Shown piece by piece: positions 23,211-60,011 of a stretch of 64,000 bases of DNA. Every line of letters starts with the position of its first letter. Position 1 is the stretch's first letter. The position numbers were made by a program, and so were the translations under genes. The stretch is from Escherichia coli (GTDB lineage: Bacteria; Pseudomonadota; Gammaproteobacteria; Enterobacterales; Enterobacteriaceae): NCBI RefSeq assembly GCF_001677475.2, contig NZ_CP015229.1; one strand, given 5' to 3'. Below the pieces are notes generated by a model. That model saw only the letters and a list, made by a program, of their open reading frames with translations. It was not told the DNA's origin and did not search any database.

Positions 23211-24197
23211 ATGATGAATAAACGTTTTGTTATCAATATGGTGTCTTCGCTGTTATTAGGCGCTGCGCTAATTTCTGCGCCGCTCCAGGCAGCGGAAAAA
23301 GTCGTGGTGAATATCTCTAAAGTCGATGGTATGCCGTGGTTTAATCGCATGGGCGAAGGTGTGGTCGAGGCGGGTAAAGCCTTTGGTGTTAATGCGTCAC
23401 AGGTGGGGCCTTCAAGTACTGATGCTCCGCAACAGGTTAAAATCATTGAGGATTTAATCGCCCGTAAGGTTAATGCAATTACTATTGTGCCAAACGATGC
23501 CAACGTGCTGGAACCGGTATTCAAAAAAGCGCGAGATGCCGGAATTGTGGTTCTGACCAACGAATCCCCCGGTCAGCCAAGTGCTAACTGGGATATCGAA
23601 ATCATTGATAACGAAAAATTTGCCGCTGAATATGTTGAGCATATGGCGAAACGCATGGGTGGCAAGGGCGGTTATGTGATTTACGTGGGTAGTTTGACCG
23701 TGCCGCAGCATAACTTATGGGCTGACTTGCTGGTGAAATACCAGAAAGAGCATTACCCGGATATGCATGAAGTTACCCGCCGCATGCCGGTTGCCGAGAG
23801 TGTGGATGACTCACGTCGTACCACACTGGACCTGATGAAAACCTATCCTGACTTGAAAGCGGTTGTCTCCTTTGGTTCAAACGGTCCGATTGGCGCGGGA
23901 CGTGCGGTGAAAGAGAAACGGGCGAAAAATAAAGTCGCAGTCTATGGCATGATGATCCCTTCACAGGCGGCATCACTGATTAAAAGTGGTGATATCACCG
24001 AAGGGATTACTTACGATCCGGCCTCTGCAGGTTACGCACTCGCAGCCGTCGCCAGCACGTTGCTGAAGGGTGAAGAGATCAAACCTGGATTAGAAATGCA
24101 GAATCTGGGTAAGGCCGACGTAGATATGGATAAGCGAATTATCCGTTTCCATAAGGTATTACTGGTCAACAAAGACAATATCGACTCACTTTATTAA
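23211..24197 (+). CDS. ABC transporter periplasmic sugar-binding protein (LsrB/RbsB-like)
   Basis: 328 aa with signal peptide (…LLLGAALISAPLQAAEK) and type-I periplasmic binding fold; first gene of a 4-gene ABC cluster. Confidence 0.8.
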   Translation: MMNKRFVINMVSSLLLGAALISAPLQAAEKVVVNISKVDGMPWFNRMGEGVVEAGKAFGVNASQVGPSSTDAPQQVKIIEDLIARKVNAITIVPNDANVLEPVFKKARDAGIVVLTNESPGQPSANWDIEIIDNEKFAAEYVEHMAKRMGGKGGYVIYVGSLTVPQHNLWADLLVKYQKEHYPDMHEVTRRMPVAESVDDSRRTTLDLMKTYPDLKAVVSFGSNGPIGAGRAVKEKRAKNKVAVYGMMIPSQAASLIKSGDITEGITYDPASAGYALAAVASTLLKGEEIKPGLEMQNLGKADVDMDKRIIRFHKVLLVNKDNIDSLY

Positions 24198-39472: not shown

Positions 39473-39836
39473 GTGTCGCAAGATAACAACTTTAGCCAGG
39501 GGCCAGTCCCGCAGTCGGCGCGGAAAGGGGTATTGGCATTGACGTTCGTCATGCTGGGATTAACCTTCTTTTCCGCCAGTATGTGGACCGGCGGCACTCT
39601 CGGAACCGGTCTTAGCTATCATGATTTCTTCCTCGCAGTTCTCATCGGTAATCTTCTCCTCGGTATTTACACTTCATTTCTTGGTTACATTGGCGCAAAA
39701 ACCGGCCTGACCACTCATCTTCTTGCTCGCTTCTCGTTTGGTGTTAAAGGCTCATGGCTGCCTTCACTGCTGCTGGGCGGCACCCAGGTTGGCTGGTTTG
39801 GCGTTGGCGTGGCGATGTTTGCTATTCCGGTGGGCA
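39473..39836 (+). pseudogene. codB: cytosine permease CodB, 5' fragment (first ~121 codons) cut by element insertion
   Basis: Frame MSQDNNFSQGPVPQSARKG... matches the CodB N-terminus up to ...AIPVG, then diverges into element sequence and stops. Confidence 0.85.
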
Positions 39837-39921
39837 CCACATAGGTCAATACCACCACAATAAAATTTTCCAATAAAAAAGCCCCATCACAAGGACAGGG
39901 CTATAGAATCAATTACTTACA

Positions 39922-51538: not shown

Positions 51539-53539
51539 ATGCTTAAATTTCGCCGCGATCTTAACGGTTACGGTGGAGTTATTAACGAAGGGCATAACGA
51601 TCAATACGAATTTGAAATTGCTTTCTCCAGTGAACAGCCTTATCAGCGCCAATTCTGGGATGAGCAAAATCAAGAAATGGTGGTATTAGATGAAATTCTG
51701 GTACATACACCGGAAGCGGTTGATCTGTCTCGTCTGAATAATAACGCTCCGTTGCTGTTCAATCACAATTTCGATAATCACATTGGTGTCGTTTGTAACG
51801 CTCGAATCGATGCGGATAACGTAGGTCGTGCTCTGGTTAAATTCTCCAAGCATGGGACTTTGGCTAATGATATTCGTAACAAAGTCATCGAAGGTACGAT
51901 GGAAAAAATTTCTGTCGGCTATGACATTAAAGAGTATCACATCGACTACGCCAAATCGCAACTCATTGTTTCTAAATGGATTCCTCACGAGGTTTCATGG
52001 GTCACGGTACCCGCAGACGACACAGTGGGTCTGAATCGCTCTCTAAATACTATCACAGTTAATTTGGAGGCTAAACGCGATATGACTAAAGAACAAATCG
52101 AAGAAATCAAAAACGAAGAAGCCGCTCCGGTTGAAGAAACTCCGGTAGAAGAAAATAAAGAACCGGAAGTTGAAGAAACTCAAGAGCGCCAAGTTGAAGA
52201 GAATAAAGAAAATGAAAATCTCGAAGACGGAAAAGACGCTGAACATCCTGAAAGTGTTGATGATGATAGTTCAACTGTTCGGGAAGAAGAAATAAAAGAA
52301 GAACGTGAAGCTGCTCCGGTTGAAGAAGAAAAAATTGAAGAAGTGGCTGAACGTTCCGAAGAAGACGAATTAGAAATCCGCGAGATCGCGCGGGAACTAA
52401 ATATTGATGACTCTGAATTAGCACGTGCATTGTCGATTAAAGACATGACGCCGGAAGCATTCCGCACTAAGGCACTAAATAATCTCGTCAATGCTCAACG
52501 TAATAACGAACAACAAATTAAGGACTCTAAAATGGAAAAAACTTTTGACCTGAACAACGTAATTCGCTCTCTGGTAGATGGTGCTGCTCTGGGTGCTAAC
52601 GAAGCTGAATATTCCGCTATGGCTGCTACTGCAACTATGCAGCGTGGTCGTGCTGCTCGTGGTGGCTCCGTATTCGTTCCGGCTGCTGCTCTGCGTGCTG
52701 CTGCTGCTGGTAACACTAAAGCTACTCTGGAAGCTGTAACCGACGAAAAACTGCTGACTGAATCCTACATCGAAATGCTGATGCCTCAGAGTGTTTTAGG
52801 CCGCCTCGGTGTGACCGTTCTGTCTGGTCTGAATAGCCCGATCGCTGTTCCGAAAATGACTGCTTCCAGCGTTGACGCTTTCGGCTTCGTTGATGAAAAC
52901 GGTGCTGCACCGGAAAGCAAAGCTCAGTTTGAAAACGTGAAAATGGCTCCTAAGACTTTCGCAGGTGGCAACCCGATCAGCCGTCAGTCTCTGAAAACCG
53001 TTCCGGGTATCGCTACCCTGATCACTGATCACATTAACAAAGCTGTTCGCATCAAACTGGAACAACTGATTCTGTCTGATAAAGCTAACGACCGTGGTCC
53101 GGCTGGTCTGGTTAAGCAACTGGTAGACGCGGGTCGCGTTACTAAGAAAGCCGCTTTCTCTTACAAAGACTTCCTGAAAGAAATTGCAGCACTGACCGAC
53201 GCTGGCGTTCCTGCTCAGGCGATCAAGTTTGCGATGAGCGGTGCAACTGCTGCTGAACTGGAATCTACCCTGAAAGATAACGGCGTTTCCGGTTATATCA
53301 TCGAAAACGGCAAACTGGCTGGTTACGAAGTAGTTACTTCTGGTGTTATCCCGGCAGACCACATCGTTCTGGGCGCGTTCGACGGTATCACCATTGGTGA
53401 GTGGGGCGGTCTGGAACTGGATATGGACGACACTACCTACCGTGCACAGTCTGCAATCGTTCCGCGTATCTGGGTAGATCTGGATTACGTTGTAACCCAG
53501 CCGGAAGCTCTGAAAGTTCTCCAGATTGGCGGTGAATGA
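51539..53539 (+). CDS. prohead protease - acidic scaffold - major capsid polyprotein (in-frame, with internal start at 52532)
   Basis: N-terminal S78-like protease motifs (APLLFNHNFDNHIGVV, SVGYD, VSWVTVPADD); E-rich linker; C-terminal ~335 aa with optimised codons and capsid-like composition; internal ATG at 52532 with AAGGA SD. Confidence 0.75.
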   Translation: MLKFRRDLNGYGGVINEGHNDQYEFEIAFSSEQPYQRQFWDEQNQEMVVLDEILVHTPEAVDLSRLNNNAPLLFNHNFDNHIGVVCNARIDADNVGRALVKFSKHGTLANDIRNKVIEGTMEKISVGYDIKEYHIDYAKSQLIVSKWIPHEVSWVTVPADDTVGLNRSLNTITVNLEAKRDMTKEQIEEIKNEEAAPVEETPVEENKEPEVEETQERQVEENKENENLEDGKDAEHPESVDDDSSTVREEEIKEEREAAPVEEEKIEEVAERSEEDELEIREIARELNIDDSELARALSIKDMTPEAFRTKALNNLVNAQRNNEQQIKDSKMEKTFDLNNVIRSLVDGAALGANEAEYSAMAATATMQRGRAARGGSVFVPAAALRAAAAGNTKATLEAVTDEKLLTESYIEMLMPQSVLGRLGVTVLSGLNSPIAVPKMTASSVDAFGFVDENGAAPESKAQFENVKMAPKTFAGGNPISRQSLKTVPGIATLITDHINKAVRIKLEQLILSDKANDRGPAGLVKQLVDAGRVTKKAAFSYKDFLKEIAALTDAGVPAQAIKFAMSGATAAELESTLKDNGVSGYIIENGKLAGYEVVTSGVIPADHIVLGAFDGITIGEWGGLELDMDDTTYRAQSAIVPRIWVDLDYVVTQPEALKVLQIGGE

Positions 53540-53672
53540 ACTCCTGTAGAACCATCTGAACCTTCCCCCGATTTGGGGGAAGAAAATCTGATTCCTGAAC
53601 CGGAAGAAGAATCCCAGACGGTTAAGGCGAAAGCCACAGTTAAAAAACAACGTAAAACTAAAGAATAATAAT

Positions 53673-53701
53673 TAGCCCTGCCTAACGGTGGGGCTTTTTT
53701 G
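53673..53701 (+). terminator. intrinsic terminator after the capsid gene
   Basis: GC hairpin (AGCCCTGCCTAACGGTGGGGCT) followed by TTTTTT. Confidence 0.55.
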
Positions 53702-53730
53702 TATGTAAATACTCCATAAAGGGGGTAACT

Positions 53731-54021
53731 ATGTTCAAATTATCAGAATCACAATTATCAAGAATGTTTAAGAGTGCTCCTGTATTTGTGGTGGAAGGTG
53801 GTAAATCAATTCGTGCTTATCATGAAATTACTACTACCGACGAATCAGGGGTAATGACAGAAACAGAATTTCTATTCTGTCGTGAGGGAGACTTAAAGCA
53901 AGGTGATATTGTCACAGTAGAAAACCAGCGTTTCAAAGTTCAATATATTAAGCGCAATGGTGACAATACAACTGATTGCTTTATTACTCTGGCAGGGGGT
54001 ACACATGCTCGCTACCGTTAA
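53731..54021 (+). CDS. small virion protein (head-tail adaptor/connector candidate)
   Basis: 96 aa; AAGGGGGTAAC SD; follows the capsid gene. Confidence 0.45.
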   Translation: MFKLSESQLSRMFKSAPVFVVEGGKSIRAYHEITTTDESGVMTETEFLFCREGDLKQGDIVTVENQRFKVQYIKRNGDNTTDCFITLAGGTHARYR

Positions 54022-54427
54022 TAATATGCCGAGACTGAAAATCAAACGCGCCTTGCAAGATATTATCGAACAAGATTTAGGTCTGGCTTTAAACGTAGAA
54101 CAAACTCAGCAAGGCTTTAGCGATGACGTGGTTTGTTGGATTACTGGCATGAATGAAACTTATACGCGTGTTCGTGGTGGTAATGCAATGCAAGCTGAAT
54201 GTGTTATCGAAATGCAGTTATATTCTCAGATTCATGAAACGAAAATTCATGAGGGTATTTGCGAGATAATCCAGATTCAGCCGGATAACCCACGATTTAA
54301 AGATTTGGGCTTCTCAATTTCAGATATCACTCCAGTAGCTTCTAATACCGATTATGACGATGATTCTAGTGATGGGGGTATCGTTGGGACACTTAGCCTT
54401 AAATTTTCTTATCTAGCGCGTTTTTAA
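54005..54427 (+). CDS. small virion protein (head-tail connector candidate)
   Basis: 141 aa from MLATVNNMP; start overlaps the upstream gene end by 17 nt. Confidence 0.45.
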   Translation: MLATVNNMPRLKIKRALQDIIEQDLGLALNVEQTQQGFSDDVVCWITGMNETYTRVRGGNAMQAECVIEMQLYSQIHETKIHEGICEIIQIQPDNPRFKDLGFSISDITPVASNTDYDDDSSDGGIVGTLSLKFSYLARF

Positions 54428-54436
54428 GGGGTAATA

Positions 54437-55270
54437 ATGAATATTACACAAGATAACTTAGACATTTTCACGGGGTCGCATGTTGAAGTCTCCTTGTCTA
54501 CTATGGTGGATAACCAGCCGGACTTTTTCGATCCTGCATTTAGTCCTATCGAGAACATCGCAGCATTCCCGACGATAACCGAATCCACAGAGATCCAGAC
54601 GTTAGAAGAATATGACCATGATGTTACTGGTAAGTTGGCTGGCTATCGTAAACTTGAATCAACTACGTTAGTAGTAAACCGTGTTCTGGATGATGAACAT
54701 CAAGACATGTTGATGAAAGCGGTGAATGATAAAACTCCTTTACGCTTTCGTATGTTCTATGTTGTGAACTCTGGTTACAGTGCTGCTAACACAGGTTACT
54801 ACGTCATCTTTGACGCTTTCGTCTCGTCACATAAAACAAAATCCGGCGATAACAAAGTTACTACAATCGAGTTTAAATTAGAACCTGATGGCGGGATTCT
54901 GGATCGCGGTATTGCTACCGAAGGCCGGATCTTACGTCAAGGTGATTTTGGTCTGGGTGCTGGTGTAAATCCATTCACGGGTCCGATTGATAGCGAAGCA
55001 TTAGCCGGAAACCGTTTCGTAACCTATCAGGGATCGAGCGCATCTAACCCATTTAGTGCTGATACTTCACTAATTCACGTTCAACCTAATGAAGATGGAG
55101 GATGGCAATTAACTTGCACCGCCTCCGGCGCACCACGTTTACGAGTTCGCACAGTCCAGAAAGATGGTAATTCTGGATGGGTGAAAGTGTATTCCACAGA
55201 AGAAAAACCGACACCAGCCGAGATTGAAGCCGTTTCTATCCATGACAGGATCGATTTCGGGGAATACTGA
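54437..55270 (+). CDS. virion protein (neck/tail-tube-like candidate)
   Basis: 277 aa; AAGGGGTAATA SD; Gly/Ser-rich beta-type composition. Confidence 0.5.
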   Translation: MNITQDNLDIFTGSHVEVSLSTMVDNQPDFFDPAFSPIENIAAFPTITESTEIQTLEEYDHDVTGKLAGYRKLESTTLVVNRVLDDEHQDMLMKAVNDKTPLRFRMFYVVNSGYSAANTGYYVIFDAFVSSHKTKSGDNKVTTIEFKLEPDGGILDRGIATEGRILRQGDFGLGAGVNPFTGPIDSEALAGNRFVTYQGSSASNPFSADTSLIHVQPNEDGGWQLTCTASGAPRLRVRTVQKDGNSGWVKVYSTEEKPTPAEIEAVSIHDRIDFGEY

Positions 55271-55346
55271 TTGCTTCTCTAAATAAAAACATGACGCGGG
55301 GAGGTTAACGCCTCCCTTATTCCTGTTTTTATAGTGAGGTGATTAG

Positions 55347-58274
55347 ATGCAATCAATCCAATTTAAACGAACTAGTGTTTCTGGCAAAAAACCTACGCCG
55401 GAACAATTACAGGTCGGTGAGGTAGCAATCAACCTTAAAGACCATGTTATTTTCACCAAAGACCGAGATAATGCCGTAGTTCAAATCTCTGTTTCTCCTG
55501 AAACTCACACTGCATTAGAAACTAAAGTTAATGCGAATAAGAAAGAATTAGACGGCAAGATTACTACAAATCACAACAATATTAACGCTAAAGTAGATGA
55601 AATTAAACAAACTACTGATGCAACTATCGCAGCAAATCACGCAGAAATTAACAATAAAGTTGATGTGATTAAGCGCGAAACCGATGCGACAATCACGGCT
55701 AATAAAAATAAAGCTGCTTCCGACCTTGCTGGCGTTAAAGCTGAATTGTCCGATACCATCACCGCTAATAAAAATGCGGCTGCTGTAGCAACTCAGGAAC
55801 TGGACACCCGCATCAATAAAAAAGTTGATGATAACAAAGCTAAAACTGATGCAACTATCGCCAGCAATCACAAAGCAATCAATGACAAAGTTGATTTGAT
55901 TAAGGCCGAGACTGACCGCACTATCGCAGCAAATAAAACATATGCTGATACTCAGCTAACTAATGCTACTAATGATCTGAATACTGTCATTGCTGCAAAT
56001 AAAAAAGAAGCTGCTGATAGCGTGGCTGCATTAACTAAGACTGTAAACACTAAAGATACAGCGATTCATAGAAAAGTTGACGAGAATAAAGCACTGACCG
56101 ACGCGGAATTATCCCGTTTGTCTGGACGACTTGAAGATGTTGCTAGTATTGGTCAAAACCGAGGCGAATTGCCAGTAGATGCTAATCTTGATCACTATGG
56201 TCCACGTTCAGAATTTGCTGGTATTTGGGGTAAATCGACTTCAACGAATGCACAACCAAGTCACAATTTCCCAGAAGAAAATGCTGTAGGTGTTCTGGAA
56301 GTTTTCACAGGCGGTCAATTCTCTGGGACTCAGCGTTATACAACACGCTACGGTAATATCTACATTCGTTCTCTTACCGCTACATGGAATGGTACTGATG
56401 GTCCGTGGTCGCCGTGGCGCAATATTCAGATGGGTACACGTCCGCTTTCGTCAACCATCGATCTTAATGATTTGGGTGGAGTTGAGCATTTTGGTTTATG
56501 GCGCAATAGCTCTAACTCAATTGCGGCTCTAGAAAGGAATTTCCCAGAAGCTGGGGCGATGGCACAAGGTCTTTTAGAAGTCTTTGAGGGTGGCAACTAC
56601 TCCCGCACTCAGCGTTATACGACCAGAATGGGCGTTGTATATGTTCGCTGTCTTGCTGCTGCATGGGATGCTAGTGCTCCTAAATGGGGTCCGTGGCAAC
56701 AAGTAGGTAATGTAACACCGTCTACTTTCTATGACGGAAACCTGAACAACTTCAAAACACCTGGTTTATATAACATTTTAGGCACTGACAAAGTTACTAA
56801 CCGTCCTGTTGCAGAAGGTGTTCCGGTTGAGATGACCGCATTGCTTGAGGTTAAACAGCGTGCTTCCGGTGGCGCTATTTTCCAACGTTTCACTACCGCA
56901 GGAACGGGAACTACTACCCGTGGTCGTGTTTTTGAACGTGCAATGACAAATAATATCTGGGGAGATTGGCACGAAGTACATACATCATATTCTATGCCAA
57001 TTACTTTAGGTATCGGTGGGATTAAAACACAATTAGAATCTTTAGATTGGCAAACTTTTGATTTTGTTCCTGGTAGCATGTTTAGCGTGCCATTGAATAA
57101 AATTACCAATATGCCAGCAAAAATGGATTGGGGAACAATTGACGGAAACCTGATCATGTTTTCCGTTGGTCCTAGTGAACACACTAGCACAGGGCGTACT
57201 GTTCAGGTTTGGCGTGGTACTGTGTCTCAAGCAAACTACCGTTATTTTGTTGTTCGTGTATTTGGTAATTCAGGAGAGAGAACTTGCACCGTTCGCCGTG
57301 TTGCTCTTGAGGATGGTCGCCATACATGGACAGCACAACAAGATTTTAACGGCGCGGTTAACTTCGGTGGGTCTGTTGTTAACTTTAAAACAGCCACTAA
57401 CTTTAATAACACTACCAGTTTTAAAACAGAAGCTAAATTTCTTTCATCTAATGCATTCCGTATGTATGGCGGTAATTTTGGTGCATTCTTGCGTAATGAT
57501 GGTGAAAGTGTTTATCTTCTTTCCACCAATGAAAATGATAAAGATGGAAACTATAATACAAATAGACCTTTCCGGTATCAGTTAAAAACTGGTGATGTTA
57601 CTTTGGGTGGAACTAGCGGTGCTGATATTTTAAGATTAAAAAGTAGTTCTCTTGCTGCTACCTTTGGCGGTGATGTTAATTTAAGTAAAGGCGTATTGAC
57701 GTTTGAAGCTGGCGGTAAGCAATCTCGCGATTATTTCCGGTTTAATCATTGGGGTGATAGCAATAAAGCTCGCGATAACATCATTCAGTTAGAAGATAGT
57801 AAAGGTGCTCATTTTTCCACTGAACGCACACTGGCAACGGGTGCAATCAAAACTAAGTTCTTTGGTGAAGTTGAATCCGATGGTCGATTAACTATTAAAC
57901 GTCCGGGTGATGCTATTGTATTATCGACTACAGCTAGCAACTCGTTGCATATTCGTGGTGATGTTGGTGGAAGCAATAACTGGTATATTGGTAAAGGTGG
58001 TGCTGATAATTCACTAGCATTTTATAGCTACGCAACTAAAGCGGGTATACACATCACAAATAATGGTGAGATATCATTTGCCCCGCAAAATTTTGCTGGT
58101 ATTAACATTAACAAAGACCGTATCTATATCAATGCTACACAATGGATTGCTAATCATTCCGGTTCATGGGATGGACAGTGGAGAGAAGAAGCACCCATCT
58201 TTATTGATCAGGGTAGTGTTGGACAAGATAGCTATTATCCTCTTATTAAAGGACATAGCCAGATCACAGGTTGA
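55347..58274 (+). CDS. long fibre / receptor-binding-like protein, 3' end interrupted by an IS3-family element
   Basis: 975 aa: N-terminal alpha-helical repeats (TDATIAANH..., TDATITANKN..., TDATIASNHK...), then three ~55-aa tandem domains (…TQRYTTRYGNIYIRSL…, …TQRYTTRMGVVYVRCL…, …FQRFTTAGTGTTTRGRVFERAM…); stop codon TGA is the first 3 nt of the IS. Confidence 0.6.
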   Translation: MQSIQFKRTSVSGKKPTPEQLQVGEVAINLKDHVIFTKDRDNAVVQISVSPETHTALETKVNANKKELDGKITTNHNNINAKVDEIKQTTDATIAANHAEINNKVDVIKRETDATITANKNKAASDLAGVKAELSDTITANKNAAAVATQELDTRINKKVDDNKAKTDATIASNHKAINDKVDLIKAETDRTIAANKTYADTQLTNATNDLNTVIAANKKEAADSVAALTKTVNTKDTAIHRKVDENKALTDAELSRLSGRLEDVASIGQNRGELPVDANLDHYGPRSEFAGIWGKSTSTNAQPSHNFPEENAVGVLEVFTGGQFSGTQRYTTRYGNIYIRSLTATWNGTDGPWSPWRNIQMGTRPLSSTIDLNDLGGVEHFGLWRNSSNSIAALERNFPEAGAMAQGLLEVFEGGNYSRTQRYTTRMGVVYVRCLAAAWDASAPKWGPWQQVGNVTPSTFYDGNLNNFKTPGLYNILGTDKVTNRPVAEGVPVEMTALLEVKQRASGGAIFQRFTTAGTGTTTRGRVFERAMTNNIWGDWHEVHTSYSMPITLGIGGIKTQLESLDWQTFDFVPGSMFSVPLNKITNMPAKMDWGTIDGNLIMFSVGPSEHTSTGRTVQVWRGTVSQANYRYFVVRVFGNSGERTCTVRRVALEDGRHTWTAQQDFNGAVNFGGSVVNFKTATNFNNTTSFKTEAKFLSSNAFRMYGGNFGAFLRNDGESVYLLSTNENDKDGNYNTNRPFRYQLKTGDVTLGGTSGADILRLKSSSLAATFGGDVNLSKGVLTFEAGGKQSRDYFRFNHWGDSNKARDNIIQLEDSKGAHFSTERTLATGAIKTKFFGEVESDGRLTIKRPGDAIVLSTTASNSLHIRGDVGGSNNWYIGKGGADNSLAFYSYATKAGIHITNNGEISFAPQNFAGININKDRIYINATQWIANHSGSWDGQWREEAPIFIDQGSVGQDSYYPLIKGHSQITG

Positions 58275-58334
58275 ATCGCCACGGGTTTAACAGACACCTC
58301 AGAGTCATTTAAGATGGCTTAAAGAGAGGTGCCC

Positions 58335-58613
58335 ATGAGCGGTAAGCGTTATCCCGAAGAGTTTAAAATTGAAGCAGTCAAACAGGTTGTTGATCGCGGT
58401 TATTCTGTTGCCAGCGTTGCAACACGTCTCGATATCACCACCCACAGCCTTTACGCCTGGATAAAGAAGTACGGTCCGGATTCTTCCGCTAATAAAGAAC
58501 AGTCAGATGCTCAGGCCGAGATCCGCCGTCTCCAGAAAGAGCTGAAGCGGGTTACCGACGAACGGGACATATTAAAAAAAGCCGCGGCGTACTTCGCAAA
58601 GCTGTCCGACTGA
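58335..58613 (+). CDS. IS3-family transposase OrfA (HTH)
   Basis: MSGKRYPEEFKIEAVKQVV... HTH and leucine-zipper region ending ...ILKKAAAYFAKLSD. Confidence 0.85.
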   Translation: MSGKRYPEEFKIEAVKQVVDRGYSVASVATRLDITTHSLYAWIKKYGPDSSANKEQSDAQAEIRRLQKELKRVTDERDILKKAAAYFAKLSD

Positions 58614-58669
58614 GGTACGCCTTTATCCGTGACAACACCTGTTGCTGGCCTGTTCGCCTGCTCTGTCGG

Positions 58670-59482
58670 GTGCTGGATGTTCATCCCAGTGGTTTTTACG
58701 CCTGGCTTCAGCAGCCGCATTCACAACGCCATCAGGCAGACCTGAGGCTGACAGGGCAGATTAAACAGTTCTGGCTGGAATCGGGATGCGTCTATGGTTA
58801 TCGCAAAATCCATCTGGATCTGCGGGACAGCGGGCAACAGTGCGGAGTGAACAGAGTCTGGCGACTGATGAAACGTGTCGGGATAAAGGCTCAGGTCGGA
58901 TACCGGAGCCCGCGGGCACGTAAAGGCGAGGCCAGTATCGTGTCGCCCAACAGGCTCCAGCGACAGTTCAATCCGGATGCTCCGGATAAGCGTTGGGTAA
59001 CGGACATAACCTACATCAGGACCCACGAAGGCTGGCTGTATCTTGCCGTGGTTGTTGATCTGTTCTCACGCAAAATTATCGGCTGGTCCATGCAATCCCG
59101 GATGACAAAGGACATTGTCCTGAACGCACTGCTGATGGCTGTATGGCGCCGTAATCCCCAAAAACAGGTGCTGGTTCATTCGGATCAGGGCAGTCAGTAC
59201 ACAAGCCATGAGTGGCAGTCGTTCCTGAAATCACACGGCCTGGAGGGCAGCATGAGCCGTCGCGGTAACTGCCATGATAATGCGGTTGCAGAAAGCTTTT
59301 TCCAGTTGTTGAAACGCGAACGGATAAAGAAAAAGATCTACGGAACGCGGGAAGAAGCCCGCAGCGATATTTTTGATTACATCGAAATGTTTTATAACAG
59401 TAAGCGTCGGCATGGTTCCAGCGATCAGATGTCACCGACAGAATATGAAAACCAGTATTATCAACGGCTCGGAAGTGTCTAG
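58670..59482 (+). CDS. IS3-family transposase OrfB (DDE catalytic domain; made as OrfAB by -1 frameshift)
   Basis: DDE integrase-core motifs (…WVTDITYI…, HSDQGSQYTS, …RGNCHDNAVAESFF…). Confidence 0.85.
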   Translation: MLDVHPSGFYAWLQQPHSQRHQADLRLTGQIKQFWLESGCVYGYRKIHLDLRDSGQQCGVNRVWRLMKRVGIKAQVGYRSPRARKGEASIVSPNRLQRQFNPDAPDKRWVTDITYIRTHEGWLYLAVVVDLFSRKIIGWSMQSRMTKDIVLNALLMAVWRRNPQKQVLVHSDQGSQYTSHEWQSFLKSHGLEGSMSRRGNCHDNAVAESFFQLLKRERIKKKIYGTREEARSDIFDYIEMFYNSKRRHGSSDQMSPTEYENQYYQRLGSV

Positions 59483-59500
59483 ATTATCCGTGGCGATTCA

Positions 59501-59938
59501 GACAAATTTATTAAATTTGGAATCACTACCCGAAAACCAGAAGAACGAATGAGAGAGCAAACCAGAAAGAGCAACTTCACTCACCGATTAATCTTTACTC
59601 ATGAGTTTGAGGATGGTTGGAAAGCTGCCGATTTAGAGCATGAAGTAAAACAACGCTTCAAGACTCATGCCGCACCCTACAAAGATTTCAAGGATGGATG
59701 GTCGGAAACTCTGACTATCGATGAGTTGCCACACTTACAGCAACTGGTTTATGACTACCTAACCAATCAACCGGACGAGGCTAATATGTGGGTATCCCCG
59801 AAAGATGTATTTGATGACGATACATTCAAGCTACATACTCACTTCTACGGCATCAATAAACCGGAATTTTTCTGTATTGATGACGATAGTCCTGATTTAA
59901 TGGATGAATACTTTAATTCTCTCTTAGACGCTGCCTAA
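59501..59938 (+). pseudogene. T5orf172/GIY-YIG-like domain remnant, in frame with the fibre gene across the IS
   Basis: Frame DKFIKFGITTRKPEERMREQ... is open from the IS edge with no start of its own and is in frame with 55347-58271 once the IS is removed; motif resemblance is from memory. Confidence 0.4.
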
Positions 59939-59953
59939 CGCAATTAAATTAAA

Positions 59954-59977
59954 AAGGGGTACATCTGTACCCCTTAA
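59954..59977 (-). terminator. intrinsic terminator downstream of the recombinase gene
   Basis: AAGGGGTACA...TGTACCCCTT hairpin flanked by an A-run on + (U-run on the - strand). Confidence 0.45.
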
Positions 59978-60011
59978 AGCGTTTATCTCGTTATACGTCG
60001 ATTTAGGCCGC

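Follow-up and report, generated by a model that had tools for sequence, protein, structure and literature searches.

An IS3-family insertion sequence at the probable junction of a 14.7-kb prophage deletion in Escherichia coli

In the stretch of 64,000 nucleotides of an Escherichia coli chromosome that was analysed here (the window), a reading frame of 975 codons resembling a phage tail fibre runs into an insertion sequence (IS), and a second open frame, which resembles a GIY-YIG-type nuclease, begins directly at the other end of the IS. The locus raises the question of whether these frames are the two parts of one gene interrupted by a simple insertion, or the remains of two genes brought together by a rearrangement. 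The evidence presented below argues strongly for the latter: very probably, a prophage has lost about 14.7 kb, and one IS3-family copy marks the precise point at which two unrelated gene stumps were joined.

The IS is intact and occupies positions 58272–59500 on the plus strand (1229 bp). Its ends are imperfect 38-nt terminal inverted repeats (left, 58272–58309; right, 59463–59500), which are 74% complementary and of the form TG...CA (TGAATCGCC...GGCGATTCA). On the same strand, orfA (58335–58613) overlaps orfB, which runs to 59482 in the -1 frame relative to orfA, and an A7 slippery run (58574–58580) lies within the overlap; such a programmed -1 frameshift arrangement is typical of the IS3 family. 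The orfB product scores 338.7 bits against NF033516 (NCBIfam IS3; cut-off 160), and the N-terminal part of this model also matches the orfA product. Copies that are 100% identical are found in many E. coli genomes, at up to 21 places per genome, and carry the PGAP label 'IS3 family transposase, programmed frameshift'. By its sequence features, the element belongs to the IS3 family, in agreement with the initial annotation. A literature search with the candidate names ISEhe3 and IS1222 and the transposase accession tied no name to the sequence, and the 64-kb window contains no second copy.

Upstream of the IS, the 5' remnant of a prophage tail-fibre gene occupies 55347–58271 (plus strand, 975 codons), as identified by tblastn, Pfam, and phrog_1699. 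With its stop codon the frame extends to 58274, and, as had been pointed out initially, the left inverted repeat of the IS supplies this TGA (58272–58274) with its first three bases. In the product, a prophage-type anchor with coiled-coil repeats forms the N-terminal part, and the distal-fibre part behind it is T4 gp37-like; the product matches Gp34_trimer (2.7e-14), gp37_trimer (2.3e-3), and phrog_1699 (1.1e-102, positions 92–822 of 1000). In tblastn it maps to residues 1–972 of the 1153-aa fibre of E. coli Z0117EC0005, and it ends with G975, the counterpart of residue 968 in the fibre P0002 (1232 aa) and roughly of residue 750 in gp37 of phage UPWr_E1 (1014 aa). The latter gp37 is identical through ...CAGATCACAGGT and then goes on CAAGGATATTC..., and in the gp37 homologues the fibre reads '...SQITG|QGYSTKADFGLRR...' across the breakpoint. 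The sequence that continues the fibre beyond the breakpoint is GGTCAAGG...; in the window the right end of the IS meets the nuclease stump instead. The full-length fibres of IS-free relatives are about 1150–1230 aa long, related to T4 gp37, and end in an S74 domain. PF13884 (Peptidase_S74) is C-terminal in every full-length homologue listed (988–1232 aa), and no Pfam match to it was obtained in the 975-aa product, which lacks about 264 C-terminal residues including this intramolecular-chaperone/peptidase domain. An NCBIfam scan of the full-length P0002 returned no family. Judged by homology, the fibre gene in the window is a truncated pseudogene of the gp37-type S74 fibre family; the earlier proposal that the IS inactivates the fibre is in keeping with the truncation at codon 975 and the loss of PF13884.

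Downstream of the IS, positions 59501–59938 (plus strand, 145 codons and a stop) hold the 3' remnant of a gene whose 391-aa product is annotated as a GIY-YIG nuclease family protein (MUG113/T5orf172-like), corresponding to residues 247–391. The remnant is identical to residues 247–391 of WP_250777660.1 at 143 of its 145 positions, and the DNA alignment of the nuclease gene is unbroken from the first base 3' of the IS. The earliest start codon in the frame is the ATG at 59549, and the initial description of an open frame continuing in phase is correct in this respect. Deleted are the N-terminal 246 residues, and with them two domains of CapR homology and the initial strand of the nuclease core. 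The intact protein reads '...ASFYIQLLD|DKFIKFGITT...' across the breakpoint (DNA, ...TTATTAGAT|GACAAATTT...), and the gene sequence right before the breakpoint, ...TTAGATGAC, is lost from the window. The first strand ahead of KFGIT is FYIQLLD, and the IS stands in its place.

This protein owes its name solely to profile similarity and to PGAP, where the intact homologue is called a 'GIY-YIG nuclease family protein'. The Pfam matches of the intact homologue are weak (MUG113, 1.1e-4; T5orf172, 0.089), and phrog_681 ('endonuclease') matches the intact protein at E=6e-43 and the remnant at 1e-22, the latter match covering only positions 452–548 of 576. No family was found for either in an NCBIfam scan, and PADLOC gave no match for the intact nuclease, for the 185-aa protein next to it, or for the ORF of 137 aa at 61758–62171.

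The initial annotation considered that a simple insertion of the IS might have split one fibre gene, about 1120 codons long, whose product ended in a T5orf172/GIY-YIG-like domain. This reading draws on two observations. When the IS is removed, 59501–59938 is in phase with the fibre frame (1229 mod 3 = 2), and the joined product gives weak Pfam matches to MUG113 (E=4.9e-5, residues 70–126) and T5orf172 (E=0.01, residues 65–120, model positions 13–69). The shared phase, however, is a one-in-three coincidence and carries no weight, and the Pfam alignments begin at the first residue after the junction and use zero residues derived from the fibre. Since YYPLIKGHSQITG at the end of the fibre stump is conserved gp37 sequence, the apparent motif across the junction is a coincidence. 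The assignment of the downstream frame to a GIY-YIG/T5orf172-type gene is supported (PGAP, MUG113, phrog_681); the motif spanning the junction is not. The residues ahead of the junction in the nuclease are ...ASFYIQLLD, not fibre sequence, and the gp37 homologues run for about 264 more fibre residues past the breakpoint. Moreover, because the IS lies between the two stumps, no fusion protein is possible.

The comparison with IS-free genomes, E. coli Z0117EC0005 (L002 coordinates) and KSC64, bears on the same reading. In Z0117EC0005 the fibre (L002 7086–10547) and the nuclease gene (L002 23937–25112) are separate genes, the former with its own stop at 10547 and the latter with its own start at 23937, and 15 genes in about 13.4 kb lie between them; in KSC64 the gene order is the same and the two are likewise apart. 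The nuclease gene is not, as had been supposed, directly 3' of the fibre gene, and the distance between the two breakpoints is about 14.7 kb. Together with the absence of a target-site duplication next to an IS that makes 3-bp ones (see below), this arrangement leaves the single-gene reading with almost no probability.

In the blastn map, window positions 48271–58253 correspond to L002 1–9986 and positions 59501–61743 to L002 24675–26914, and about 14,670 bp of L002 have no counterpart in the window. The distance from the fibre start to the nuclease fragment is 17.6–20.0 kb in seven genomes matching both flanks, versus 4.15 kb in the window, or 2.9 kb once the IS is subtracted. A tblastn match (E<=1e-3) in the 64-kb window was obtained with none of the 15 intervening L002 proteins, and no relocated tail genes were found within it. 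Relative to the relatives, the window has lost the tail tube, a 2.4-kb tape-measure-sized gene, the tail tip protein, and small genes of the lysis region, as well as a D-Ala-D-Ala carboxypeptidase-type gene, a DEAD/DEAH helicase, and others. The PADLOC matches of this helicase are generic and at the helicase level only (PbeA, type IV restriction enzyme, HamB; best E about 5e-12), and it is not read as a defence system. An inversion in place of a deletion was considered and rejected: the flanks are collinear with the relatives and in the same orientation, and the missing segment adjoins neither side. Among 5,426 complete E. coli genomes no pre-deletion intermediate of the same lineage was found, the best fibre match having 85.6% nucleotide identity. 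Because the nearest full-length fibres are only 83–86% identical to that of the window, what was lost, and how much, can be estimated only from relatives, among which the segment varies (14.7–17 kb).

The flanks of the IS provide a further indication. The bases GGT on the left and GAC on the right form no target-site duplication, as had been noted initially, although IS3-family copies typically have a short one of 3–4 bp. Among six other identical copies of the IS, four have 3-bp duplications (CCG, CGC, AAG, and TTA), and the two without a duplication both lie between unrelated truncated genes. Since four of the six are duplicated, the missing duplication in the window fits either an IS-adjacent deletion or recombination between two copies, the two causes to which such absence has been ascribed (PMC11708052). 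It should not be taken as an argument against membership in the IS3 family, because the deletion would account for it. The initial suggestion that it marks an IS-associated rearrangement agrees with the roughly 14.7 kb that is gone relative to the relatives.

Both breakpoints coincide to the base with the ends of the IS. The proposed deletion of about 14.7 kb would have taken the last 264 or so codons of the fibre gene, all genes up to the nuclease gene, and the first 246 of the 391 codons of the latter. It may have arisen by insertion of the IS into the fibre or the nuclease gene followed by an IS-promoted adjacent deletion, or by two insertions in the same orientation followed by homologous recombination between the copies. 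One sequence cannot fix the order of events: either gene may have been the first to be hit, and one IS or two may have taken part. In either case the fibre stump would end at the IS-borne TGA, and the nuclease stump would have no promoter or start before the internal ATG at 59549 and would lack part of its catalytic core.

Of 83 IS movements in the E. coli long-term evolution experiment, 14, every one involving IS150 (also of the IS3 family), were accompanied by deletions of 14 bp to 48.9 kb and had no duplication, and all 14 were explained as insertion followed by adjacent deletion (PMC11708052). The window resembles these cases in having an IS3-family element with orfA/orfB and a -1 frameshift, a single copy at the junction, no duplication, and a deletion (about 14.7 kb) that falls inside their size range. 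It differs from them in that the IS is another one (1229 bp), the host is a natural isolate, the event lies inside a prophage, and there is no earlier time point showing an intermediate.

Two other explanations differ in how the junction came about. A deletion in the making might have taken up the IS at its double-strand break in a single step, without any prior normal insertion, according to the IS-deletion model proposed from laboratory evolution (PMC11708052). A single IS centred in a duplication-free deletion is the very signature described there; however, the same study reads all of its 14 IS150 cases as insertion and then adjacent deletion, and nothing in the window tells the models apart. 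One-step capture appears very improbable here. Also very unlikely is an assembly artefact, in which two IS copies, one in the fibre gene and one in the nuclease gene, with the tail module of about 14.7 kb between them, were collapsed into one. In E. coli this IS is repeated in many copies, and the short-read contigs with each junction end within it. These contigs, and the recurrence of both the fibre/IS and the IS/nuclease junctions in independent assemblies, confirm each junction separately and not their linkage through the same copy. The exact 975-aa product is carried by assemblies such as GCA_002516285.1. Against an artefact, the whole 1229-bp IS lies inside a continuous stretch of 64 kb, which suggests that the repeat was resolved; two unrecombined insertions in one prophage would be less stable than the recombined product, and duplication-free deletion junctions are common for this IS (two of the six other copies). 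There is also a small probability that the locus represents one-step IS capture in a natural isolate or, in a weaker variant, that the tail-less remnant keeps an activity (excision, capsid formation).

The deletion preferred here affects a prophage that lies inside codB and, from the blastn map against E. coli 39EVA and L002, extends approximately from 39866 to 62915 (about 23 kb including the IS). The same-site prophage of 39EVA has about 35.8 kb between the codB halves; other members of the prophage family adjoin ycdY. The prophage keeps regulatory, terminase, portal, and protease-capsid genes, three small genes, both stumps, and a large serine recombinase (60012–61709, minus strand, 565 aa), which is apparently intact and converges on the nuclease remnant. 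The recombinase is 73% identical to that of L002 along all 559 aa of the latter (tblastn) and matches the Pfam families Resolvase, Recombinase, and Zn_ribbon_recom. Absent are the tail tube, the tape-measure-sized gene, the tail tip, the lysis genes, and the helicase. The window holds a decayed member of an E. coli siphovirus-like prophage family that uses a serine recombinase and, since tail and lysis genes are gone, this prophage presumably cannot make infectious particles.

For annotation, the 975-aa 'fibre' and the downstream ORF of 129/145 aa are to be treated as pseudogene fragments of two genes and not as a fusion or a new architecture, and the prophage is to be scored as defective, without tail or lysis genes. 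The locus illustrates neatly that the lack of a target-site duplication can reveal an IS-associated deletion; to IS and phage biology it contributes nothing new, the IS-linked loss being ordinary prophage decay, an event of a kind already known.

The components of the locus compare with known systems as follows. The window fibre shares with gp37 of Krischvirus (UPWr_E1, vB_EcoM_G2248) about 82% nucleotide identity over 2.1 kb, the Gp34_trimer and gp37_trimer domains, and the phrog_1699 match. In contrast to that gp37, its N-terminal 270 or so residues are of the prophage type, with coiled-coil repeats common to other E. coli prophage fibres; its gene belongs to a temperate phage that has a tail tube and no annotated sheath gene; and the C-terminal 264 or so residues including the S74 domain are missing. 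The nuclease remnant, which compares with the phage GIY-YIG-superfamily (MUG113/T5orf172-like) endonucleases of phrog_681, has the KFGIT strand and is 99% identical to the last 145 residues of a 391-aa protein that PGAP assigns to the GIY-YIG nuclease family. Only 37% of that protein is kept; the CapR-homology domains are missing, as is the initial core strand. As a whole, the prophage resembles the defective (cryptic) prophages of E. coli that result from IS insertion and deletion, in which recombinase and head genes are kept and the genes for virion assembly and lysis are gone; mechanistically it differs in nothing from these, and it lies in codB.

The fibre ORF of 975 codons (55347-58274, + strand, from the ORF list of the raw sequence) ends at a TGA (58272-58274) formed by the first three bases of an IS3-family element, which the repeat search places at 58272-59500 (1229 bp, + strand). 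The element has TG...CA termini and 38-nt imperfect terminal inverted repeats. It contains, on the + strand, orfA (58335-58613, starting with ATG) and orfB (which stays open as far as 59482), which stand in a -1 relationship and overlap at an A7 run (58574-58580). With the NCBIfam IS3 transposase model (cut-off 160 bits), the orfB product reaches 338.7 bits. Many E. coli chromosomes and plasmids hold copies that are 100% identical across all 1229 bp, which PGAP names 'IS3 family transposase, programmed frameshift'. The orfA/orfB arrangement, the model score and the identical copies show an intact IS that has been active recently; no second copy lies within the 64-kb window. The element belongs to the IS3 family, as the defining features tested are all present save a target-site duplication at the window copy, which is missing because of the deletion described below.

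On the left flank, the stretch of the fibre ORF that begins at nucleotide 814 and ends with the last sense codon has about 82% DNA identity to gene 37 of Krischvirus phages, which are lytic. The gene 37 product is the distal long-tail-fibre subunit. In the Krischvirus phage UPWr_E1, gene 37 encodes 1014 aa and the match ends at about codon 750; the junction alignment is near-identical through ...GGACATAGCCAGATCACAGGT, past which the phage gene reads on as CAAGGATATTCTACTAAGGCTGAC... (QGYSTKADFGLRR...) and the window enters the IS instead. Besides the truncated protein P0001 ('partial', E. coli), the protein search returned only longer proteins (988-1232 aa), and PF13884 (Peptidase_S74, an intramolecular chaperone) is C-terminal in every longer fibre homologue found. 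The closest full-length fibre is P0002 (1232 aa, 86% identity); because the last residue of the window fibre aligns at its position 968, approximately 264 C-terminal residues are missing. A Pfam scan of the 975-aa product found Gp34_trimer and gp37_trimer and no S74 domain, while phrog_1699 is matched over positions 92-822 of 1000. The left stump belongs to the gp37 + S74 fibre family and is truncated.

The right flank (59501-59938) consists of 145 open codons and a stop directly 3' of the IS right end, the first start codon being an internal ATG at 59549. The 511 bases after the IS have full-length matches (96-97%) in 12 complete E. coli genomes, in a gene named 'GIY-YIG nuclease family protein' in ten of them and 'hypothetical protein' in two. 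An intact gene (391 aa) lies at 23937-25112 of L002, the locus of an IS-free relative prophage in E. coli Z0117EC0005, where the translation across the breakpoint reads ...RTYQGKASFYIQLLD/DKFIKFGITTRKPEERMRE... and the DNA alignment is unbroken from the first base past the IS; 143 of the 145 window residues are identical to nuclease residues 247-391. In the intact nuclease, Pfam finds two CapR-homology domains followed by MUG113 (E=1.1e-4, 251-307) and T5orf172 (E=0.089, 247-301), and phrog_681 'endonuclease' matches at 6e-43; the remnant covers only profile positions 452-548 of 576. The right stump is a fragment of a protein that the profiles place, weakly in Pfam and strongly in PHROGs, among the phage endonucleases in the GIY-YIG superfamily. 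Between this stump and the convergent recombinase gene lies a GC-rich hairpin (59949-59978; GGGGTACA-TC-TGTACCCC) with A and T runs on its sides, which is probably a bidirectional terminator.

The two flanks belong to genes that are far apart in the relatives. L002 has a full fibre gene with its own stop (7086-10547, 1153 aa, 'pyocin knob domain-containing S74 family peptidase'), and 15 genes separate it from the nuclease gene: a tail tube gene, two small genes, a 2.4-kb gene of tape-measure size, two small genes, a DUF6950 gene, a 3.65-kb tail tip gene, four small genes, a D-Ala-D-Ala carboxypeptidase-type gene and, on the other strand, a DEAD/DEAH helicase and a 185-aa gene. The nuclease and serine recombinase genes come after all of these. 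By blastn, window 48271-58253 is collinear with L002 1-9986 (89.7% identity) and window 59501-61743 with L002 24675-26914, leaving about 14,670 bp of L002 without a counterpart. None of the 15 intervening proteins has a tblastn match (E<=1e-3) anywhere in the window. The L002 fibre matches with residues 1-972 only, and the nuclease with a reported 224-391, of which, by the residue alignment given above, 247-391 is the true remnant and the remainder runs into the IS. The distance from fibre start to nuclease fragment is 17.6-20.0 kb in seven genomes matching both flanks, and 4.15 kb in the window, 1.23 kb of it IS. The window thus shows a deletion junction occupied by a single IS, whose two ends are exactly the breakpoints.

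All the factual statements of the initial annotation (ORF, IS limits, in-phase frame, absent duplication) were correct on rechecking, and its GIY-YIG/T5orf172-like sequence downstream of the IS is borne out by the intact homologue, annotated GIY-YIG and matched weakly by MUG113 and T5orf172 and strongly by phrog_681. The proposed motif spanning the junction does not hold: the native strand before KFGIT is FYIQLLD, the fibre's YYPLIKGHSQITG is conserved gp37 sequence, and on the hypothetical joined product the Pfam alignments start precisely with the first residue past the junction, leaving out the fibre part altogether. Nor was there a fused fibre with a C-terminal domain of this type. The comparison with IS-free homologues, a check set beforehand, revealed the separate fibre stop, the 15 genes and the separate nuclease gene in Z0117EC0005, and the same gene order in KSC64, a second IS-free relative; these and the junction alignments of both flanks rule out a fused gene interrupted by simple IS insertion. 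Since 1229 mod 3 = 2, removing the IS puts the nuclease frame and the fibre ORF in the same phase; the shared phase is a one-in-three coincidence without consequence.

Several other features of the prophage may be mentioned. It lies in the E. coli chromosome between prpE and codA, splitting codB (5' part ~39473-39844, 3' part 62913-63818), presumably integrated by its large serine recombinase (60012-61709, - strand). A relative at the same codB site in E. coli 39EVA occupies ~35.8 kb, vs ~23 kb in the window. The relatives in Z0117EC0005 and KSC64 adjoin ycdY and their recombinase is 73% identical to that of the window, so that the choice of integration site appears to track recombinase divergence. 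Between recombinase and prophage end, a 137-aa ORF (61758-62171, - strand) with a hydrophobic, signal-peptide-like N-terminus is possibly strain-specific cargo; it has no PADLOC match, and blastn finds no DNA counterpart of 61743-62113 in the relatives L002 and L003. The 666-aa head protein (51539-53539, + strand) is a fusion of a prohead protease domain (Peptidase_S78) and a major capsid domain (Phage_capsid; both by Pfam) and has an acidic low-complexity linker. In this phage family the fibre gene is upstream of the tail tube gene. L002 21724-25112, absent from the window, places the DEAD/DEAH helicase (PADLOC matches at the generic helicase level only), the 185-aa protein and the CapR-domain/GIY-YIG nuclease between lysis genes and recombinase; 39EVA has different genes and an IS1 there, and the segment resembles an accessory region of variable content. 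The ~82% identity to T-even-like Krischvirus gene 37 covers the distal two thirds (56160-58271) of a temperate-prophage fibre gene, and the three small genes that follow the KSC64 fibre share 89% identity with the three behind UPWr_E1 gene 37 (compared loci L001 3001-5088 and 5824-6823; L012 4599-5601). A whole fibre module was swapped fairly recently between this siphovirus-like prophage family and virulent Straboviridae.

The window IS is flanked by ...ACAGGT/IS/GACAAA..., without duplication. Six other 100%-identical copies were retrieved with their flanks, and four have perfect 3-bp duplications (CCG, CGC, AAG, TTA), which upholds the earlier suggestion that the missing duplication hints at IS-mediated rearrangement: a 3-bp duplication is the norm for this IS, and its absence in the window marks a rearrangement. 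The other two (L007 and L008, in E. coli G4/9 and 2018-05-2CC; ygeH/IS/arsH and IS/LRR-protein fragment) lack it and, each being flanked by unrelated truncated genes, are likewise rearrangement junctions; this suggests that the IS often ends up at such junctions.

An assembly collapse, in which two IS copies with the tail module between them were merged into one, would gain from the short-read contigs with either junction, which do not bridge the IS, but the window itself does, and we consider a collapse very unlikely. The exact 975-aa product is found on nine contigs (the one shown, from assembly GCA_002516285.1, breaks off after 57 nt of the IS) and a 129-aa nuclease stump on six (the one shown takes in the last 29 nt of the IS); both junctions, taken singly, are thus reproducible. 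That a break captured the IS in one step is also very unlikely. For the route to the deletion, which we infer, one sequence alone fits several starting points. The IS may have entered the fibre gene at ACAGGT/CAAGG, giving a GGT duplication, or the nuclease gene at GAT/GACAAA, giving a GAC duplication, either being followed by an adjacent deletion; or two insertions may have been followed by recombination between the copies. The fibre stump ends at the IS-borne TGA.

A routine IS-associated deletion has made the prophage a cryptic remnant; this is known biology, and the useful output is the corrected annotation. IS copies without duplication have been ascribed to adjacent deletions or recombination between two copies (PMC11708052). 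Of 83 IS movements in the E. coli long-term evolution experiment, 14 were accompanied by deletions (14 bp to 48.9 kb) and show no duplication; every one of these was of IS150, also of the IS3 family, and every one is explicable as insertion and then adjacent deletion (PMC11708052). The duplication is absent from those IS150 deletions, just as it is at the window IS.
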